This document shows, in pieces, positions 1 to 34,607 of a stretch of 59,376 nucleotides of DNA. Under the pieces are notes generated by a model. That model was not told the origin of the DNA and made no database searches. It worked only from the letters and a program-made list of their open reading frames with translations. The stretch is taken from positions 13,402-72,777 of the forward strand of contig CAZSRD010000002.1 of the NCBI GenBank assembly GCA_964609455.1, given 5' to 3'. The position numbers and the translations under genes are program-made. The stretch's first letter is position 1, and every line of letters starts with the position of its first letter. This DNA comes from an uncultured Methanosarcinales archaeon (GTDB taxonomy: Archaea; Nanobdellota; Nanobdellia; Woesearchaeales; JACPBV01).

Positions 1-940
1 GAATGCTATATGCCTCCCAATAATTTATTATTCCATCCAAACAAGTACCAGATGCTGCAATCACTTTTCCATTGATTGTACCGCCACCAACACGAACTAC
101 AGTATAATCAACAGGAACTTGCGCATTTATATTATTATTGGCAAGGTCCTCAACCATAATCTTAAATGAAGCAGCTGTTTTATCAAAAACATATGCCGCA
201 TGCAAAGGGCCATAACCGTCTGGAGCATTTCCTCCAGAAGATGGGTAAACTGTCAATAAAACATTATAATTAGTATCGCTCAAACCAAGGGAAGATATGT
301 CAATTGTTGCTTGACCGTATGGCTTGCCGCTAATAATCCCAATAGTTCTGCTTCCTGTTAGCAATACGCCACCACCAGTACCACTACCACTCGAAGAACC
401 GCCACCGCCATCACCTTCACAACATATCATCCACATATTCACATAAGTTATGTCTGTATAATGAGAATCTCCTTTAATTCCAGCAACATAATATCCAGGT
501 AGGCATTTTTTGTCAATATTCCTTGTATTCCACGTCAAAACCCTTTCATAATAACAATTGTCTTGGGCTAAACCACCACCAACACAATTCCCACTACCAT
601 CACAAATAGTTCCAGAAGCCTTTATATCACCAACAACATCAAGTTTTACTGCGGGGTTTGTTTTTCCAATACCCACATTACCCGTAACAGCAGAATACAT
701 ATTGCTTCCAGAAATCGTCCAATCATTATCCGCTCCAGTGCCTCCACCAATCAACCCTTGTGTTATTGCTTCCTGTAAACTGTAGTCTGTTCCGCTAATA
801 CTAACCTTAACAGCATTTGCTTCATGATAAGCACTTGGTGCAGTCCAAGTAGCAAAAGCAATACTCACACCAATAACAAGTACAGCTAAAATAGAGATTA
901 ACCAAAAATGCCTTTTTTCAAAGTGTATTATGAATTTCAT
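1..940 (-). CDS. Membrane-anchored/secreted surface protein, C-terminus cut by window edge (absent from ORF track because no stop lies in the window)
   Basis: Hand translation of the minus strand from ATG at 940 stays open through position 1 (313 codons). Starts MKFIIHFEKRHFWLISILAVLVIGVSIAFATW (TM/signal anchor). Then SGSNMYSAVTGNVGIGKTNPAVKLDVVGDIKASG (tail-fibre-like motif), paired Cys, and linker GDGGGGSSSGSGTGGG. Confidence 0.6.
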   Translation of the reverse strand, partial: MKFIIHFEKRHFWLISILAVLVIGVSIAFATWTAPSAYHEANAVKVSISGTDYSLQEAITQGLIGGGTGADNDWTISGSNMYSAVTGNVGIGKTNPAVKLDVVGDIKASGTICDGSGNCVGGGLAQDNCYYERVLTWNTRNIDKKCLPGYYVAGIKGDSHYTDITYVNMWMICCEGDGGGGSSSGSGTGGGVLLTGSRTIGIISGKPYGQATIDISSLGLSDTNYNVLLTVYPSSGGNAPDGYGPLHAAYVFDKTAASFKIMVEDLANNNINAQVPVDYTVVRVGGGTINGKVIAASGTCLDGIINYWEAYSI

Positions 941-1006
941 AGTTTCCCCTCTTTTTGAATAATTACTTACTTTAAATAAACTTATATAAAAAACTATCGG
1001 AAAAAA

Positions 1007-2560
1007 CTATATATTCTTCAAAAGAAAATACCTAAAACCTTTTTCTATAGCTTCAAGTGAAGCCTCCAATATATTCGTACTAACACCAACCGTACCCCAT
1101 TCATCACCATTGTTTTTGAATTCTATGTAAACTCTAACAGAACTCTCTGCTCCATTATCTTGCGCTATCATAACTTTATAATTTACCAATTGTACTTTAT
1201 CTATATCCTTATGCGCAGACCCTATCATCTTCACCAAAGCATGATAAATAGCATCTACTGGACCGCCTTTAACAGGAGCCACAACCTCAACATTATTTCC
1301 ATTAACAGTTCCTGCCAATATTCCTTCAGAAAACTCGCCATTCTTCTGCTCGCTCATTACTTTCCAAGTTTTAATCTCAAAAACCTTTCCTTTATTGCCA
1401 AAAAATTCTTCCTTTAACAAAAATTTCTCAGCATCCAAGGAACCAATATCATACCCTTTTTTCTCTAGCTCCTCAACCTTCTTTAACATCTGTGAAACTC
1501 TATCATCATCTTTACCAACCTTTAAGCCAAAATTCTTCAAAACTCCAACAATATTTGCTCTCCCGCTTAAATCACTTAAAACAACTCCCCGGTTATTCCC
1601 TACCAATAAAGGATCAATATGCTCATAAGATGCTCCTTTCATTATTGCATCTACATGTACCCCCCCTTTATGCAAGAAAGCATGTTTCCCGACAAAAGGA
1701 TTGCTTTTATTCGGCTTGATATTAGCCAAAGTATAAACCAAATCACTTAATGCAGTTAATCTTTCTAACTTAACTTCCAACTTCAAATTTTTCTTCAACA
1801 CCAAATTAGGTATTATTTGGCATAAATCAGCATTTCCTGCTCTTTCACCAAAACCATTAATTGTTCCTTGTATCATCCCAACTCCAAAATCAACACTAAC
1901 TAAAGAATTAGCAACACCAACACCAGAATCATTGTGAAAATGAACGCCCAATTTAACATTCAACCCTTCTTTCTTCAAAAAATCAACAACCGTTTTTAAA
2001 ATACCCATAACATCATCAACAAGAGTCCCCCCATTAGTATCACACATAACTAAATAGTCAGCCTTAGCCAATGCGGCCTCTTTCAAGCAGCTTAAAGCAT
2101 ATTCTTTATTATCTTTAAAACCATCAAAAAAATGTTCCAAATCATAAAGTACCTCTAAACCATTTTTCTTTAAAAATTCTATACTCTCTCCGATAGCATT
2201 TAAATTCTCCTCTGGCTTTGTCTTAAGCTGCATCTCAACATGCTCTATCCACGTTTTACCAAAAATGCATGCAACATTAGCCTTGCTGTTTAATATTGCC
2301 TGTAAATTAACATCATCCCCTGCCTTTACGCCAACCCTTCTGGTGCTCCCAAAAGCCACAATTTTAGCATTCTTCAGCTTTAATTTGCTTGCCTCTATGA
2401 AAACCCCCATCTCTTTTGCGTTGGCAGCAGGCCACCCAAGCTCAATATAATCGACGCCAAAATCATCTAAAGCTTTAACTACCTCAATCTTGTCTCTAAG
2501 CGAAAAGTTCACATTTGCGCTTTGGCAACCATCCCTTAAAGTTGTGTCAAATATTTTCAT
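1007..2560 (-). CDS. cimA: (R)-citramalate synthase, Geobacter/TIGR00977-type member of the LeuA/HCS family
   Basis: MKIFDTTLRDGCQS, ELGWPAANAKE, AFGSTRR, FGKTWIEHV, HFFDGFK, MCDTNGGT, GTINGFGERAGNADL, HKGGVHVDA, and C-terminal regulatory domain WGTVGVSTNILEAS. ATG at 2560 is preceded by GTGAT; the track's 2569 start is a GTG. Confidence 0.8.
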   Translation of the reverse strand: MKIFDTTLRDGCQSANVNFSLRDKIEVVKALDDFGVDYIELGWPAANAKEMGVFIEASKLKLKNAKIVAFGSTRRVGVKAGDDVNLQAILNSKANVACIFGKTWIEHVEMQLKTKPEENLNAIGESIEFLKKNGLEVLYDLEHFFDGFKDNKEYALSCLKEAALAKADYLVMCDTNGGTLVDDVMGILKTVVDFLKKEGLNVKLGVHFHNDSGVGVANSLVSVDFGVGMIQGTINGFGERAGNADLCQIIPNLVLKKNLKLEVKLERLTALSDLVYTLANIKPNKSNPFVGKHAFLHKGGVHVDAIMKGASYEHIDPLLVGNNRGVVLSDLSGRANIVGVLKNFGLKVGKDDDRVSQMLKKVEELEKKGYDIGSLDAEKFLLKEEFFGNKGKVFEIKTWKVMSEQKNGEFSEGILAGTVNGNNVEVVAPVKGGPVDAIYHALVKMIGSAHKDIDKVQLVNYKVMIAQDNGAESSVRVYIEFKNNGDEWGTVGVSTNILEASLEAIEKGFRYFLLKNI

Positions 2561-2579
2561 TTTAATCACACAGAAACTG

Positions 2580-2607
2580 GCTACATTCCCTCAAGAAGAG
2601 ATGTAGC
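2580..2607 (-). promoter_or_regulatory. Hairpin (7-bp stem GCTACAT/ATGTAGC, 14-nt loop) between the leader ORF stop and the cimA SD
   Basis: Inverted repeat read directly: gctacat 2580-2586 and atgtagc 2601-2607. Confidence 0.5.
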
Positions 2608-2670
2608 TTAAAATATAATAATGATTCCTAAGAAACTCTTGCTTATTTTTTTTATTATAGGACCATTCAT
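2608..2670 (-). promoter_or_regulatory. Candidate Ile-rich leader peptide ORF (20 codons) upstream of cimA
   Basis: Minus strand reads ATG AAT GGT CCT ATA ATA AAA AAA ATA AGC AAG AGT TTC TTA GGA ATC ATT ATT ATA TTT TAA = MNGPIIKKISKSFLGIIIIF. TATA TTTATATATA (minus, 2701-2692) is centred about 27 nt upstream of the ATG. The stop codon abuts hairpin 2580-2607. Confidence 0.4.
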
Positions 2671-2809
2671 ATAACCTAAGAATCCAAAACATATATATAA
2701 ACCTTTTCATTCCTTTTTATGTCGTCCCTTAAAAATAGTTAAAAAAAAGAAAGCTTTAAATAGAGGTAAAATATCCCACCTATAGAAAAGAGGTTCTTAG
2801 GGTGAAATA

Positions 2810-3589
2810 ATGTTAGTGCAAAAAGACTTTTTAAATAAACTAAGGGATTTTGGTTTGAATACTTATGAAAGCAAGATATGGACTGCTTTGCTAAGCAGAG
2901 GAGTTTCTACAGCAGGGGAATTAAGTGATATTGCTAATGTTCCTAGAAGCAGAAGTTATGATGTTCTGGAAAGCCTTGAGAAAAAAGGATTTATAATTGT
3001 TAAGCCAGGAAAGCCAATCAAATATATCGCAGTAAAGCCAGAAGAGGTAATTGAAAGAGTTAAAAATAAGGTAAAAGACGAAACAGACCAAAAACTTAAG
3101 CTTATAGAAAGTCTTAAATCAACAAAAATCCTTGACGAACTCAATTCATTGCACACCCAAGGCCTAGATTTAGTAGAGCCAACAGATTTAACAGGCGCTA
3201 TAAAGGGAAGAAAAAACATATACAACCACTTAGCAACTATGATAAAAAATGCTAAAAAAACAATCACCATAGCAACAAGCTCCCAAGGAATAATAAGATA
3301 CCAGGATATATTATTGGGGCATTTGACAAAAGCAAAACAAAAAGGAGTTAAGATAAAAATTGTAGCGCCTATACAAAACCAAAAAGATATAAAAGAATTA
3401 TCTAAAATTGCAGAGGTCAAAAATACAAGCCTTAAAGCAAGGTTTTGCATAATTGACAAAAAAGAAATATTATTCATGCTTATGGATGACGAAAAAGTTC
3501 ACCCCAGCTATGATATTTCAATTTGGGCAAATACTGAATTTTTTTCAAACGTTCTTGAAAGCGCATTTGACAGCTATTTAATCAAATAG
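2810..3589 (+). CDS. TrmB-family transcriptional regulator (paralog 1)
   Basis: N-terminal wHTH: LGLNTYESKIWTALLSRGVSTAGELSDIANVPRSRSYDVLESLEKKGF. C-terminal TrmB-type effector domain. AGGGTGA SD lies before the ATG. Confidence 0.85.
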   Translation: MLVQKDFLNKLRDFGLNTYESKIWTALLSRGVSTAGELSDIANVPRSRSYDVLESLEKKGFIIVKPGKPIKYIAVKPEEVIERVKNKVKDETDQKLKLIESLKSTKILDELNSLHTQGLDLVEPTDLTGAIKGRKNIYNHLATMIKNAKKTITIATSSQGIIRYQDILLGHLTKAKQKGVKIKIVAPIQNQKDIKELSKIAEVKNTSLKARFCIIDKKEILFMLMDDEKVHPSYDISIWANTEFFSNVLESAFDSYLIK

Positions 3590-17256: not shown

Positions 17257-18402
17257 TCAACTCTTACTTTTAGTTAACCACCCAAACTTATAACCCCTAT
17301 GTTGCTTTATAGCATTTTCCAATCTCTTTTGGTTTTCAGGGGATTTTTCTAACAAACCCAATTTTAATATTTTTAATAAGTAAGCCCAATTTACAAATAA
17401 TTCAAATATATACAAATTTTTATTTTTGATTTTCTTTATTTTTCCATTTATACCTAAACTTTCAAATAGTTTTCTATAATCACTTACAAACCCACCATTA
17501 CACTCAAAAACCCTTAAATAAGAATGTAAACACCCTTTTCTATCTCTTGTACTGTAAAAATTACCATCTCCTGCGAGCAAACCTTGCAAGAAATAGACAA
17601 TTAATTTTTTGTTTGATTTACTTCCAATCAAATACTTTCTCACTTCATTCATCATGCTATCTATAATCTCAGCTAAAAGAGAATTGGTTATCCAAATTCT
17701 TACCGTATACTCTTTAATCCTTTTTGCTTGTTTATCATTAATGTTTTCTGCTTTAATTCCTATAGAAATCAATTTATCTTCAACCTCAATTATTTTTTCA
17801 TAATTAAGTTGCGGATTATACCTTATAGTACATTTGCATAGATTCAAGTTAACTAGATATCCCCAATATTTTAGAAAATCTTCAATTAAACCCATATCTG
17901 CATTCGTAAAATTAATCTCTCTGCCTCTTCTTTTTCTTAATTTTACTTTTCCGCCTTCTGCTTGGTAATAGCCGAGCAATCTGAAAAATTCTAGAGGTAC
18001 AAATCTATTTATGGTTATATCGTTTGGCCTTCCTTTAGTTGAATACCATAACTTAATCTTATTTTCTTCCTCTAAAGCAAGGATATCAAAACCAGATAAG
18101 ATTTTTTCAGGAATGAATGATAACACATCTATTTTATTGTTCAAAATAAACTTCTTTGGCCTATAAATGTTTTTTAAGATTGAAAACTGGATTTTAGTAG
18201 GCTCATTTAGAATATTCCATCTCAATTCTTTTGGAATAAAAAACCTGCCTTCTTTAGTTAATTTAGTAATAAAACAAATGTCTCCAATTTTAATCTCTAT
18301 AAATTGATTGCCAATAGTCTTTTGAATACTTTTAGGTAACCAAATTCGATTATTTTTAATATTTACAATCAAATCAAATTTTTTATTATTTTTTAAATTC
18401 AT
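17257..18402 (-). CDS. Free-standing double-motif LAGLIDADG homing-endonuclease-like protein with N-terminal AbrB/SpoVT-like repeats
   Basis: LAGLIDADG motifs LLGYYQAEGGK and FLQGLLAGDGNF are about 110 aa apart. The N-terminus has two RIWLPKSIQKTIG / RFFIPKELRWNI swapped-hairpin-like motifs. The ORF looks very AT-rich by eye. Confidence 0.75.
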   Translation of the reverse strand: MNLKNNKKFDLIVNIKNNRIWLPKSIQKTIGNQFIEIKIGDICFITKLTKEGRFFIPKELRWNILNEPTKIQFSILKNIYRPKKFILNNKIDVLSFIPEKILSGFDILALEEENKIKLWYSTKGRPNDITINRFVPLEFFRLLGYYQAEGGKVKLRKRRGREINFTNADMGLIEDFLKYWGYLVNLNLCKCTIRYNPQLNYEKIIEVEDKLISIGIKAENINDKQAKRIKEYTVRIWITNSLLAEIIDSMMNEVRKYLIGSKSNKKLIVYFLQGLLAGDGNFYSTRDRKGCLHSYLRVFECNGGFVSDYRKLFESLGINGKIKKIKNKNLYIFELFVNWAYLLKILKLGLLEKSPENQKRLENAIKQHRGYKFGWLTKSKS

Positions 18403-18543
18403 CTTGAATCACCGAATTATTTCCTTGTTGAAACTATCTAAATGATTTTTAGCAAAGCAAAAATCATAATTTAATAGTTGAAATATCTTTTAGGTGATTT
18501 AAGGGAATAGAATATAAAAGATTATTGGTTCTACGAATAAAAA

Positions 18544-19668: not shown

Positions 19669-20526
19669 ATGATATCTGTAACAACTCTATGTTCATATAT
19701 GTACTGCCCAAGGAAGCTATTTCTTCAATACGTTCTTAAACTAACAGAGCCACCAAAGGAAGCGCTGATTAAAGGATCAATAAGGCATAAAGTATACGAA
19801 AACATAAATTTAGTAGAACAGGAGATTGTAAAAAGCATAAAAGAATTGCATACTTTGGAAGATCTGAAAGGTAAATATCACCAAAGATATAGAGAAATCC
19901 TATTAGATGTCATAAAACAGAAAAAAGAAGATCTAAAACAATTCAATATTCAGCCTCAAGACCTCTTCAAGCAAACTTGGCCTTTAATACTTGCAGAATC
20001 AGAAACAAGAGCCTCACTAATCCACAATTTTATTCTTAAAAATAATATTTTTGGAGAAGAGCTTTGGGAAAAGCTAACCCCTAAGATAGAATCAGAACTA
20101 AGGATAGAATCTAAAAATCTAGGCCTAAGAGGAATCATTGACCAAATTGAAGTATACCAAGTAGGATTTGTGCCAATCGAGCTTAAAACAGGTAAAACCC
20201 CAAAAGAAGGCGTTTGGCCCGGCCATAAAATCCAGCTAATAGCATATGCCTTATTATTAGAGGAAAAGTTCAAAACAGAGGTAAAGGAAGGTTTTGTACA
20301 CTATCTAGACTCTAAACAAAAGAGGCATATTCCCCTAAACCCATTTATGCGTCTTGAAGTCAAAGAATTAATCAAAAAAGTAAATTTCCTTCTAAACTCA
20401 GACAAAATACCAAATTTCGAAAAAAACCAGAATAAATGCATTAATTGTGGCTTAAAAGATGATTGTTATGACGAAAAAAAGCTAAAGACACTACTACAAA
20501 ATAAAAAACAAAAAGTTTATATATAA
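19669..20526 (+). CDS. Cas4-family PD-(D/E)xK exonuclease with 4-Cys cluster (stand-alone)
   Basis: N-terminal YCPRKLF Cys; IIDQIE...PIELKTGK (D..ExK); QLIAYALLLEE (QxxxY); C-terminal CINCGLKDDC (Cx2Cx5C). Confidence 0.75.
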   Translation: MISVTTLCSYMYCPRKLFLQYVLKLTEPPKEALIKGSIRHKVYENINLVEQEIVKSIKELHTLEDLKGKYHQRYREILLDVIKQKKEDLKQFNIQPQDLFKQTWPLILAESETRASLIHNFILKNNIFGEELWEKLTPKIESELRIESKNLGLRGIIDQIEVYQVGFVPIELKTGKTPKEGVWPGHKIQLIAYALLLEEKFKTEVKEGFVHYLDSKQKRHIPLNPFMRLEVKELIKKVNFLLNSDKIPNFEKNQNKCINCGLKDDCYDEKKLKTLLQNKKQKVYI

Positions 20527-32779: not shown

Positions 32780-33583
32780 ATGATTGTGAAAGAGGAGTTT
32801 TTAAGCAAACTAAGAAGATATTTCTCGTTAAACCTCTATGAGGTTAAAATTTGGACTGCATTGCTGAGCAGAGGAGTTTCTACAGCAGGGGAATTAAGTG
32901 ATATTGCAGACGTTCCAAGAAGCAGAAGTTATGATGTTCTAGAAAGCCTTGAGAAAAAAGGATTTGTGATTATGAAGCTAGGTAAGCCAATAAAATATCT
33001 TGCCGTTCCGCCGCAGGAAGTTTTGGAAAGGGTAAAAAAGAACGTTAAAGAAGATGCAAAAGATCAAATCACAAGATTAGAAGAACTAAAAGGAACAGAA
33101 GTTATTAACGAATTAAACGCTTTGCATACTCAAGGTGTAGAGCTAGTAGAGCCAGCTGATTTATCAGGTTCTTTAAGAGGGAGGCACAACCTATACAACC
33201 ATCTAGAATTGACTATTAGAAACGCAGAAAACAACGTTACCATGATGACAACAACCCAAGGGTTCATAAGAAAAGTTGAAGGTTTAAAGCCCACATTTGA
33301 GAAGATAAAGAAACGCGGTGTTAAAATCAGAATTGCAGCGCCAATAACAAAAGAAGCAATGTCATCAGTTAAAGACCTAAAAGGTTTAGCAGAAGTTAGG
33401 CACACAGATAGCAAAGCAAGGTTCTGTATTGTTGATGGCAAAGAGCTTATTTTCATGGTATTGGACGATGCAGAAGTGCACCCAACCTACGATGTAGGCG
33501 TATGGGTAAACACACCATTCTTTGCAAAAGCATTAGACACCCTATTTGATTCAGCTTGGAAAGGCATGAAGCCAATTAAATAA
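32780..33583 (+). CDS. TrmB-family transcriptional regulator (paralog 2)
   Basis: YEVKIWTALLSRGVSTAGELSDIADVPRSRSYDVLESLEKKGF. Colinear with 2810-3589 through the C-terminal domain. GGGGGTGA SD. Confidence 0.85.
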   Translation: MIVKEEFLSKLRRYFSLNLYEVKIWTALLSRGVSTAGELSDIADVPRSRSYDVLESLEKKGFVIMKLGKPIKYLAVPPQEVLERVKKNVKEDAKDQITRLEELKGTEVINELNALHTQGVELVEPADLSGSLRGRHNLYNHLELTIRNAENNVTMMTTTQGFIRKVEGLKPTFEKIKKRGVKIRIAAPITKEAMSSVKDLKGLAEVRHTDSKARFCIVDGKELIFMVLDDAEVHPTYDVGVWVNTPFFAKALDTLFDSAWKGMKPIK

Positions 33584-33603: not shown

Positions 33604-33618
33604 CGAAAAGTTTATAAA
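33604..33618 (+). promoter_or_regulatory. BRE/TATA promoter element
   Basis: cgaaaag + tttataaa. The TATA centre is about 30 nt upstream of the ATG at 33645. Confidence 0.55.
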
Positions 33619-33644
33619 CAGGGGGTCATTAATACCTATCTAAG

Positions 33645-33725
33645 ATGGCTATGGCTGGGAAGATAAATTCAATATTGAATGAGTTCTTTCTAGGTCAAAA
33701 TTTCTTTTATTTTTATTTTTGGTAG
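33645..33725 (+). promoter_or_regulatory. Candidate aromatic-rich leader peptide ORF (26 codons) upstream of the aro-tyrA-pheA-pheST operon
   Basis: ATG GCT ATG GCT GGG AAG ATA AAT TCA ATA TTG AAT GAG TTC TTT CTA GGT CAA AAT TTC TTT TAT TTT TAT TTT TGG TAG = MAMAGKINSILNEFFLGQNFFYFYFW. Nine of the last 13 residues are F/Y/W. Confidence 0.4.
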
Positions 33726-33818
33726 GGCCTCTAGGTTAATTTTAATGCCTGGGACCCTCATTGTTTAAAACTGGTAAACAGACTTACACAAAAATAAAAA
33801 ACACAAAAGGTGAAACAA

Positions 33819-34607
33819 ATGGTTGGAAAACAAATAAGGATGCAAAGAATAATGAACAGAAATACAGGTAAAACTGTCGTCATCCCAATGGATCATGGGG
33901 TAACAGTTGGGCCAATAAAAGGCCTAGAGAACCTGAGGGATACAATTAATAAGGTAGCAGAAGGCGGGGCAAACGCAATAGTATTGCATAAAGGAATTGT
34001 TGCTGCAGGACTCCGTTCTGGAGGAAGAGATGTTGGGTTAATAATACACCTCTCAGCATCTACCAGCTTAGGGCCAGACCCCAACCATAAGGTGCAATGC
34101 TGTACTGTTAAGGAAGCAGTAAGATTGGGTGCAGACGCAGTCTCGATACATGTAAATATAGGTGCAGAAGATGAAGCAGAAATGCTGAAAGACATGGGAG
34201 AGGTATCAAGAGAATGTTATAAATGGGGAATGCCTTTGTTGGCTATGATGTATCCTCGTGGAAAGAAGATAAAAGACGAAAAAGATGTTGAAGCAGTTAA
34301 GCTGGCAGCGCGAGTAGGTGCAGAGCTAGGTGCAGACATTGTAAAAACAGTATACACGGGAAGTGTAGAATCTTTCAAACAGGTTATTGAAGGGTGCCCT
34401 GTGCCTGTTATTATAGCAGGAGGTTCAAAAGGAAACGAAGAAGCATGTTTGAAAATGATAGAGGATGCCATGAAAGCAGGAGCTGCAGGAGTGGCAATGG
34501 GAAGGAACTCTTTCCAGTATAAGGATCCTGCAAAATTCGTTAAAGCAGTATGCGAGGTAGTTCACCACAAAAAAAGCGCAAAACAAGCATGTAGTGTATT
34601 AAGGTGA
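33819..34607 (+). CDS. aroA': 2-amino-3,7-dideoxy-D-threo-hept-6-ulosonate (ADH) synthase, archaeal shikimate entry enzyme (class I aldolase family)
   Basis: [37 protein letters not shown]...AIVLHKG...KTVYTG...IAGG. MJ0400-like. AAGGTGA SD lies before the ATG at 33819. Confidence 0.8.

Follow-up and report, generated by a model that had tools for sequence, protein, structure and literature searches.

A leaderless, isoleucine-rich short ORF upstream of citramalate synthase as a probable ribosome-read attenuator in DPANN archaea

The cimA locus and its proposed leader element

The DNA analysed here (the window) is a stretch of 59,376 nucleotides from an uncultured archaeon (GTDB lineage Woesearchaeales; assembly GCA_964609455.1, contig CAZSRD010000002.1, positions 13,402 to 72,777 of the forward strand). 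Near its start the window carries the gene cimA on the minus strand, preceded by an archaeal promoter, a short open reading frame (ORF) rich in isoleucine (Ile) codons, and a hairpin. A preliminary description of this DNA had proposed that the short ORF encodes a leader peptide, and this was supported by our comparison with related loci. The parts of the element and the gene are listed below; the promoter, the codon run and the spacer were assigned by sequence reading.

2708-2692, minus strand: archaeal promoter, consisting of a GAAAAGG resembling the transcription factor B recognition element (BRE) at 2708-2702 and the TATA box TTTATATATA at 2701-2692
2670-2608 including the stop, minus strand: leader ORF ATGAATGGTCCTATAATAAAAAAAATAAGCAAGAGTTTCTTAGGAATCATTATTATATTTTAA, encoding MNGPIIKKISKSFLGIIIIF followed by its stop; read from the sequence and from homologous ORFs at 19 other cimA orthologues
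2625-2614, minus strand: regulatory codon run ATC ATT ATT ATA (Ile16-Ile19)
2607-2580, minus strand: hairpin abutting the leader stop, GCTACAT-N14-ATGTAGC, directly after the TAA at 2610-2608
2579-2561, minus strand: spacer CAGTTTCTGT, Shine-Dalgarno (SD)-like GTGAT (2569-2565) and TAAA before the cimA ATG
1007-2560, minus strand: cimA, citramalate synthase of 517 amino acids, assigned with the TIGR00977 profile

The centre of the TATA box lies 26.5 nt from the A of the leader ATG at 2670, and the purine-rich GAAAAGG stands directly 5' of the box, as expected of an archaeal BRE. From the position of TATA box and BRE relative to the ATG the mRNA is predicted to be leaderless, with the transcript starting at or beside the ATG. 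In the leader peptide 7 of the 20 residues are Ile, with IIII near the stop, and a single codon (TTT) separates the Ile run from the stop. Each of these coordinates was re-read and agreed with the preliminary description, as did the TAA abutting the inverted repeat, the GTGAT and the cimA ATG. The hairpin was found where it had been placed, but its proposed form, a 7-bp stem with a 14-nt loop, had to be revised: RNAfold extended it to a stem of 12 pairs that has one bulged A and closes on a 3-nt loop (about -12.7 kcal/mol). Between the hairpin and the cimA ATG (2560) lie 19 nt, and the spacer CAGTTTCTGT is the window's version of a CCATTGTTTCT motif that is kept in relatives. The downstream enzyme had been named as citramalate synthase, and the protein indeed passed the TIGR00977 equivalog cut-off (526.1 bits, cut-off 450) over residues 2-515 of 517. 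The gene appears to be monocistronic; two T6 runs and a separate promoter come after it.

Conservation across cimA relatives

Relatives were sought with the CimA protein, blind to the leader, which gave 63 loci (19 from genomes and 44 from metagenomes; L numbers below). The closest cimA relatives sit in metagenome-assembled genomes (MAGs) labelled Woesearchaeota or Nanoarchaeota. Comparable Ile-rich ORFs, for which the preliminary description had suggested looking in relatives, were present in the same arrangement at 20 of the 22 archaeal cimA orthologues (38-76% identity) whose upstream region could be read. Among the 18 retrieved orthologues of at least 52% identity, 16 had a short ORF, predicted to be leaderless, with the Ile run 0-2 codons before the stop; the exceptions were L028, which has no leader, and L027, whose contig begins inside the hairpin. 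Examples of the leader peptides are MKDTNRITGMGKFFLIIGIIIIV, MKNSYMVQSISKIFLAIGIITIIIC, MNDSIKTGKSAFILAIAITGIIIIL and MDSVITKKGFLGIIIIA, and further ones from relatives are MNTGLITCARISSTGSAIII, MKLTLIISIISIIIIA and MNNTLIIIPIIISIIIIA, each followed by a stop. Four AT-rich loci at 38-48% identity (L065, L032, L031, L056) also bear the element, with peptides ending in AGIIIII, ISIITIII, IAIIIQN and SIISITII. These four loci are taken to be archaeal because their flanks encode aEF-1alpha, TrmB, Taw1 and a diphthine-synthase-like methylase. Among the fetched loci, the element was absent from the GC-rich bacterial, Thermoproteota, Nitrososphaerota and Methanomethyliaceae cimA loci.

The length of the cimA leader ranges from 16 to 29 codons, and the frame, the C-terminal Ile run and the position of the stop are conserved while the sequence varies. 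Over the last 8 residues of the 20 cimA leaders, 104 of 160 positions are Ile and 4 are Phe, Tyr or Trp. A TATA-like element begins 31-35 nt 5' of the ATG in 22 of 25 leaders, its centre again about 27 nt away, usually preceded by GAAAAG; in L026 the promoter position fits a second, downstream ATG. In L005, L006 and L021 the element stays with cimA though the upstream neighbour differs.

Two further arrangements were seen at the more distant loci. L035 (44% identity, AT-rich) has at about 2430-2500 a hairpin and adjacent SD (GCGAA...TTCGC AGGAAAG), which come after the end of a normal long gene (...FDITII and stop) and not after a short leader ORF. In L065 a further ORF at 714-809, about 200 nt upstream of the cimA leader, terminates in SASLIII and is abutted by a hairpin (-10 kcal/mol); it may be a tandem copy of the element or the tail of a different gene.

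Chance controls

The preliminary description had cautioned that Ile codons arise by chance in AT-rich spacers, a concern that was answered by shuffles and same-locus controls. The window spacer has 249 nt and 28% GC. After 20,000 dinucleotide-preserving shuffles of this spacer, 91 contained an ATG ORF of 10-40 codons with III in its last 7 residues; 9 gave III together with an abutting hairpin, and a IIII run was obtained in 5. A census of the window gave 41 intergenic short ATG ORFs, and a run of four Ile was found only in the cimA leader. In 190 kb of AT-rich sequence (the window and related loci, both strands) 1,650 short ORFs were screened. Nineteen of them joined a C-terminal Ile run to an abutting hairpin, and 17 of these 19 were the element upstream of cimA.

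Hairpin, spacing and the downstream start codon

All 20 cimA leaders have a hairpin of -6.4 to -15 kcal/mol beginning 0-4 nt past the stop, as compared to 12.6% of control short ORFs. MAFFT and RNAalifold on 14 leaders returned no consensus structure, the alignment not being structural, and were replaced by a hairpin-anchored alignment of 10 members in which pairs were counted explicitly. In this alignment 94% of the cells were paired and 4 of the 7 pairs had changed on both sides. None of 500 shuffles matched the observed pairing or covariation, and registers slid along the alignment paired at 21-57%. The G-U pairs found in the stem favour an RNA structure over a DNA palindrome.

In most members 6 nt separate the last Ile codon from the base at which pairing begins (range 3-9). 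Where no codon comes between the Ile run and the stop, the hairpin sets in 2-4 nt later, which suggests that selection acts on this spacing.

The first start codon after the hairpin lies 9-33 nt downstream. In the close group it is preceded by the conserved CCATTGTTTCT and then an SD (GTGAT, GGAGG or GAGGT), and in distant members (L065, L032, L031) the SD abuts the hairpin. At L005, L006, L021, L024, L025 and L057 the AUG homologous to the window cimA start opens a second mini-ORF of 11-32 codons (L005 1575-1625, L006 2958-3020, L021 2966-3004; also L074 1690-1743). Its stop overlaps the true start of the downstream gene (e.g. ATGA, TGATG; overlap 4-59 nt). At the six cimA loci this start is found about 40 nt downstream of the homologous AUG, with an SD of its own. 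This overlap implies translational coupling, and the second mini-ORF appears to be a remnant of the ancestral 5' end of cimA, retained as a translational coupler. A functional role for the first AUG past the hairpin is indicated by its short and constant distance and by the second ORFs that overlap.

A sister element: the putative aromatic leader of the aro operon

The preliminary description had also pointed to a companion leader rich in Phe, Tyr and Trp before the aro operon. This leader was found to be conserved in four relatives with the same architecture. In the window it is accompanied, like the cimA leader, by a TrmB-family gene.

33611-33619, plus strand: TATA box TTTATAAAC of the aro leader region
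33645-33725, plus strand: aro leader ORF, MAMAGKINSILNEFFLGQNFFYFYFW and stop
ending near 33757, plus strand: hairpin of the aro leader
33759-33766, plus strand: post-hairpin motif CATTGTTT
2810-3589, plus strand: TrmB-family regulator gene, divergent from cimA, a 58% identical paralogue of the TrmB-like gene that precedes the aro leader

The window aro leader ends in FFYFYFW before its stop, and its abutting hairpin has -12.2 kcal/mol. The operon behind it begins at 33819 and encodes ADH synthase, dehydroquinate synthase II, AroD-AroE, AroA, AroC, TyrA, PheA, PheS and PheT. Relatives were found via ADH synthase and fetched with 3.5 kb flanks; their operon opens with two transketolase genes, so the leader lies beyond flanks of 1.5 kb. 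The leaders of the four relatives are MSLEKHSRKLNEFFLDLTFFYYFR, MNILERLNIGLNEIFLDRQLFYFYFW, MAHEKALNKDFFLVPYFYF and one ending in SNWYFFYFE, the last in a MAG labelled Diapherotrites; their tails are FFYYFR, FYFYFW, YFYF and WYFFYFE. They lie at L073 1565-1670, L074 1473-1590, L075 1588-1690 and L076 3210-3390, the corresponding region of the window being 33611-33819 (plus strand). Each has an abutting hairpin of -12.8 to -16.9 kcal/mol. Over the last 8 residues of the five aro leaders, 29 of 40 positions are Phe, Tyr or Trp and none of the 40 is Ile. T4-T5 runs stand behind the hairpin in the L074 and L075 leaders, and a T9 run within the L076 hairpin.

Both leader types have a mid-peptide motif in common (KLN(E)FFL / SKIFL, or in general KLNxFFL) as well as a post-hairpin motif, CCAUUGUUU. 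Together they look like one module that was re-targeted by exchanging its codon run. The cimA and aro loci are the only two amino-acid-biosynthesis loci in the window, each with a matching leader; the remainder is housekeeping.

The post-hairpin motif was found as CCATTGTTTCT within 0-2 nt after the hairpin in L006, L016, L023, L024, L025, L026, L057 and L059, with a degenerate copy in the window at 2579-2570. The aro leaders carry it as TCATTGTTT or CCATGGTTT, the copy of the window being the one at 33759-33766. Judged from this conservation, the motif is under sequence-level selection in two leader families, and it could be a factor-binding or cleavage site. The distant leaders L065, L032, L031, L056, L033 and L063 do not have it, and there the SD or AUG comes directly after the hairpin. 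As a genome-wide signal CATTGTTT was rejected, the window having 9 copies where 5.0 are expected, which is no enrichment; its meaning rests on its position after leader hairpins.

A helix is also predicted inside the leader ORF. In the window it pairs 2667-2658 with 2630-2620 (UCCUA/UAGGA in a shifted register). In L005, L006 and L057, AAUGAUUCC (codons 2-4, N-D-S) is the exact complement of GGAAUCAUU (G-I-I, opening the run), in L016 the pairing is retained via U-G, and the aro leader of L073 has an analogous CUAGAAAAA/UUUUUCUAG pairing. This helix could be a pause or timing hairpin, or a coincidence with the conserved peptide.

Paralogous TrmB-family (TrmBL2-like) genes with 58% identity are situated beside both leaders of the window, at 2810-3589 and 32780-33583 (both plus strand). 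The first is divergent from cimA, and the second immediately precedes the aro leader. In L073 only 1 nt separates the TrmB stop codon from the ATG of the aro leader, which has no TATA box of its own. The TrmB-like genes may form a second, protein-based control layer; the gene at 2810-3589 is only possibly part of the control system.

Proposed mechanism

We consider it highly likely that the leader is an attenuator of cimA in which the ribosome reads the supply of Ile. The sensor part, a ribosome reading a codon run for the end product of the pathway, seems secure. Transcription would begin at or beside the ATG from the BRE/TATA at 2708-2692, as the promoter geometry suggests. A ribosome would then load on the 5' AUG and, if the ORF is translated as predicted, would have to decode four successive Ile codons before the stop. 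The hairpin begins about 6 nt past the last Ile codon. For a ribosome awaiting Ile-tRNA with the last Ile codon in its A site, the base of the hairpin would thus stand at about +13, counted from the first nucleotide of the P site, and a ribosome arriving at the stop codon would have to unwind the 5' arm. Judged by the footprints of bacterial and eukaryotic ribosomes, this position is where the mRNA channel opens. The spacing was measured in the sequences, and its consequence is proposed by analogy with these footprints. The spacing rule would maximise the contrast between the two ribosome states. In these states the hairpin and the roughly 20 nt leading up to the next AUG would be folded differently, and for very different durations. 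This difference would set the expression of cimA, high if Ile is scarce and low if it is plentiful. The polarity, with Ile starvation switching cimA on, is the one that physiology would lead one to expect.

For the controlled step we tentatively propose initiation at the first start codon after the hairpin, i.e. translation attenuation of the kind seen in ermC and in the leaderless poly-Cys short ORFs of mycobacteria, a proposal that we place just short of probable. It is in line with the next AUG always standing 9-33 nt past the hairpin, with the SD that abuts the hairpin in L065, L032 and L031, with the overlapping second mini-ORFs and with the lack of any run of four or more U in the window leader. 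A scan of 900-3000 gave no terminator-like site, and T runs between the hairpin and cimA of the window reach at most 3. A bacterial-type intrinsic terminator was looked for in the window leader and none was found. No Rfam model reached its gathering score in the window; below that threshold, the top hits in 2500-2820 were unrelated small RNAs with E of at least 0.1.

Hungry-codon frameshifting was considered as another output and rejected. The +1 frame of the window is open to 1 nt before the ATG, but most relatives have a TAG in the +1 frame inside the ORF.

Several points weigh against the proposed attenuator or its translational output. Leader translation, the transcription start site and regulation by Ile are predictions. 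The close orthologue L028 has its cimA 10 nt behind another gene and no leader. Free and constrained folds gave no mutually exclusive antiterminator and terminator helices but a single conserved hairpin. Sequestration of the SD and AUG by a freed 3' arm did not emerge as a consistent switch, the mean unpaired probability being 0.47 free, 0.55 stalled and 0.52 terminating. The Ile codons were also tried as an anti-SD strand, with RNAduplex pairing the final 24 nt of the ORF with the stretch between the end of the hairpin and AUG+6; with a mean z of -0.18 against 300 shuffles per locus, such pairing was not general. Only L033 and L063 had a convincing helix of 12-13 bp between the Ile tract and the SD region, with one compensatory change. 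The geometry suggests that the hairpin is intact when the ribosome is stalled and melted when it is terminating. On this basis a lone repressive hairpin would regulate in the wrong direction, unless the stalled ribosome extends 2-4 nt beyond what is assumed. In the aro leaders the hairpin stands 60-190 nt from the first gene. Finally, the sequence-conserved, U-rich CCAUUGUUU is explained more easily by a step at the level of the transcript.

Alternative explanations

A close rival, which we hold to be possible but somewhat doubtful, keeps the same sensor and places the output in the transcript. The hairpin and the single-stranded CA/U-rich CCAUUGUUUCU would then be a premature 3'-end site, acting by weak intrinsic termination or by aCPSF1/FttA cleavage and termination. 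A ribosome parked at the Ile run would mask or deform this site and permit read-through, by the logic known from tnaC and Rho. The post-hairpin motif is kept in cimA leaders whose proteins are just 64-76% identical and stands also after the aro hairpin; such conservation at the sequence level suggests recognition by a factor rather than a spacer. The distance of the aro hairpin from its first gene, the T4-T5 runs of L074 and L075 and the T9 run within L076 point in the same direction. Furthermore, the KH domains of aCPSF1/FttA recognise U-rich RNA, with aCPSF1 recognising U-tracts (PMC8716108), and FttA has been proposed to monitor transcription-translation coupling (PMC11616081).

However, archaeal terminators are U4-U7 tracts that do not require a hairpin, and Term-seq in four archaea gave U-tracts without upstream hairpins (PMC8716108). 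The CAGUUUCUGUG of the window and the CCAUUGUUUCU of the relatives have at most 3 consecutive U. No T run before cimA exceeds 3 and no terminator-like site was found there, whereas the 3' end of cimA has two T6 runs. In L065, L032, L031, L056, L033 and L063 the motif is missing and the SD or AUG follows straight after the hairpin. A ribosome stalled away from the RNA polymerase would moreover be expected to favour termination by FttA, and the overlapping second mini-ORFs would be superfluous if the output were set in the transcript.

It is very unlikely that the short ORFs encode functional small hydrophobic peptides, e.g. membrane-embedded subunits or regulators, that are merely co-transcribed with cimA; in that case the high Ile content would stem from a transmembrane segment encoded by an AT-rich genome. 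The C-terminal halves are indeed hydrophobic, and the K-L-N-x-F-F-L / SKIFL motif shows synonymous variation (UUC UUA vs UUU CUA), which suggests selection on the peptide. Against this, the peptides have just 16-29 residues, and their tails are 65% Ile (104 Ile to 10 Leu, Val, Phe and Met together), unlike ordinary transmembrane helices. The distant members have only the Ile run and its position in common, the aro leader exchanges Ile for Phe, Tyr and Trp within the same architecture, and the fixed spacing to an RNA hairpin would be left without a role.

Still less probable is that the neighbouring TrmB-family regulator binds the inverted repeat and its flanking motifs as DNA operators, the ORF being incidental. 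A TrmB-like gene is the neighbour of both window leaders (the 58% identical paralogues) and also at L001, L003, L004, L016, L056, L073, L074 and L075. However, L005, L006 and L021 retain the element without this neighbour, the pairing of the stem survives sequence drift through G-U pairs and compensatory changes, which fits RNA, and the frame of the ORF, its codon run and the stop position are conserved.

That the ORF is a chance product of an AT-rich spacer has negligible probability and is effectively refuted by comparison, census and shuffles: ATA and ATT codons are frequent at 28% GC and another, unrelated intergenic ORF of the window (18442-18474, MIFSKAKIII) also terminates in III, but IIII arose in just 5 of 20,000 shuffles, the element is conserved at 20 loci with covariation of the hairpin, and it is specific for regions upstream of cimA.

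Relation to known systems

Attenuation by leader peptides is textbook knowledge for bacteria, where it relies on the coupling of transcription to translation. Archaeal transcription uses an RNA polymerase of eukaryote-like type, U-tract terminators that work independently of hairpins, and FttA, a CPSF73-like factor. The ribosome-read Ile attenuator proposed here resembles the bacterial attenuators (ilvL of E. coli/Salmonella ilvGMEDA, ilvBN, leuL, trpL, hisL, pheL/pheM) in that the codon run matches the product of the downstream pathway. As in those systems, the ribosome would sense charged tRNA, and the position of the stop is such that a ribosome terminating there covers the RNA segment that follows. 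The aro leader is comparable to E. coli pheM/pheST, where a Phe-rich leader precedes an operon containing pheS and pheT. Unlike the classical attenuators, the element has an archaeal host, a BRE/TATA promoter and an mRNA predicted to be leaderless. It also differs from them in having one conserved hairpin instead of an antiterminator/terminator pair, no U-run terminator, a codon run at the extreme C-terminus with a fixed distance of about 6 nt to the hairpin, and no match to a leader in Rfam.

For the polycysteine short ORFs of the mycobacterial 'Cys ribulon', it has been proposed that stalled ribosomes block a structure sequestering the ribosome-binding site (RBS) (Canestrari et al., bioRxiv 10.1101/834739). 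The likeness lies in a short ORF as first cistron, leaderless in mycobacteria and predicted to be so here, a codon run for the downstream product, occurrence at several loci and a proposed translational output. The mycobacterial system differs in being bacterial and having a defined RBS duplex; no such duplex is predicted for most of the archaeal members, and their SD is outside the hairpin.

In ermC/cat and tnaC, too, a ribosome arrested in a short upstream ORF alters the fate of the RNA just downstream. In the Rho-dependent tnaC, arrest beside the stop hides the entry site of a factor, which is the logic of a transcript-level output. However, those arrests are set off by a drug or free tryptophan via the nascent peptide and not by hungry codons, and Rho and the bacterial release factors of such systems are absent from archaea. 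The bacterial ile/leu/cimA T-boxes similarly read tRNA charging to control a branched-chain amino-acid gene, but they bind uncharged tRNA directly and have no ORF, and Rfam detected none in the window. A T-box-like core, GGTGGTAACGCG, with a hairpin/T-run terminator was recognised, by eye only, at about 2310-2400 of L051, a bacterial cimA homologue.

Stimulators of -1 frameshifting are stable structures placed 5-9 nt past the codons in the decoding site, at the entrance of the mRNA channel. In the cauliflower mosaic virus (CaMV) shunt a short ORF ends just before a hairpin and the landing site comes after it. The archaeal element is similar to the former in its structure at the channel entrance and to the latter in its short ORF ending before a hairpin. 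Unlike the frameshift stimulators it has no slippery sequence, and the alternative frames are closed in most members (TAG in +1). Positive coupling by shunting, as in CaMV, would give the wrong regulatory polarity here.

The full-text literature search returned bacterial leader peptides, archaeal leaderless translation and archaeal termination factors; no report of an archaeal amino-acid leader peptide was found in it, which is not proof of absence. The element would work like a leader-peptide attenuator but belongs to no described family. We think it probable that DPANN archaea, including Woesearchaeota-like ones and at least one MAG labelled Diapherotrites, own a family of leaderless, ribosome-read amino-acid attenuators that is re-targeted by swapping the codon run. 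The proposed chassis would consist of a BRE/TATA, a 5'-AUG, a K-L-N-x-F-F-L-like segment, the sensor codons, 6 nt, the hairpin and CCAUUGUUU; the run would be Ile for cimA and Phe/Tyr/Trp for the aro-tyrA-pheA-pheST operon.

If this is correct, it would be the first ribosome-mediated amino-acid attenuation in Archaea, a type of control so far described only in bacteria, and the conserved codon-run sensor would make the ribosome a metabolite sensor in Archaea too. As the bacterial terminator/antiterminator device would be unusable, the output step would be new. It might be hairpin-gated initiation at the next AUG, or an aCPSF1/FttA site masked by the parked ribosome. The element is compact and mutable (a cis-element of about 110 nt with strict spacing), and would offer a handle on the communication between ribosome, RNA structure and possibly FttA. 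It would also flag DPANN lineages that regulate their own synthesis of isoleucine and aromatic amino acids, and serve in annotation as a signature for unannotated regulatory short ORFs in AT-rich archaeal MAGs.

Other features of the window

The gene downstream of cimA (1-940, minus strand) runs off the start of the window and has its own TATA-like sequences beyond the two T6 tracts. It encodes an unrelated Gly/Thr-rich secreted or membrane protein with a signal peptide or transmembrane segment. The V-rich short ORFs at 358-411 and 568-600 were rejected as leader candidates, being out-of-frame artefacts within this long gene. The other neighbours, besides the TrmB-family regulator, are Hjc and RNase Z, followed by tRNA-splicing endonuclease, FEN-1, Trm5/Tyw2 and RFC, a gene content that marks the organism as an archaeon. 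Elsewhere in the window, an ORF with a LAGLIDADG-like domain is situated at 17257-18402 (minus strand), and a gene for a nuclease of the Cas4/PD-(D/E)XK family at 19669-20526 (plus strand).

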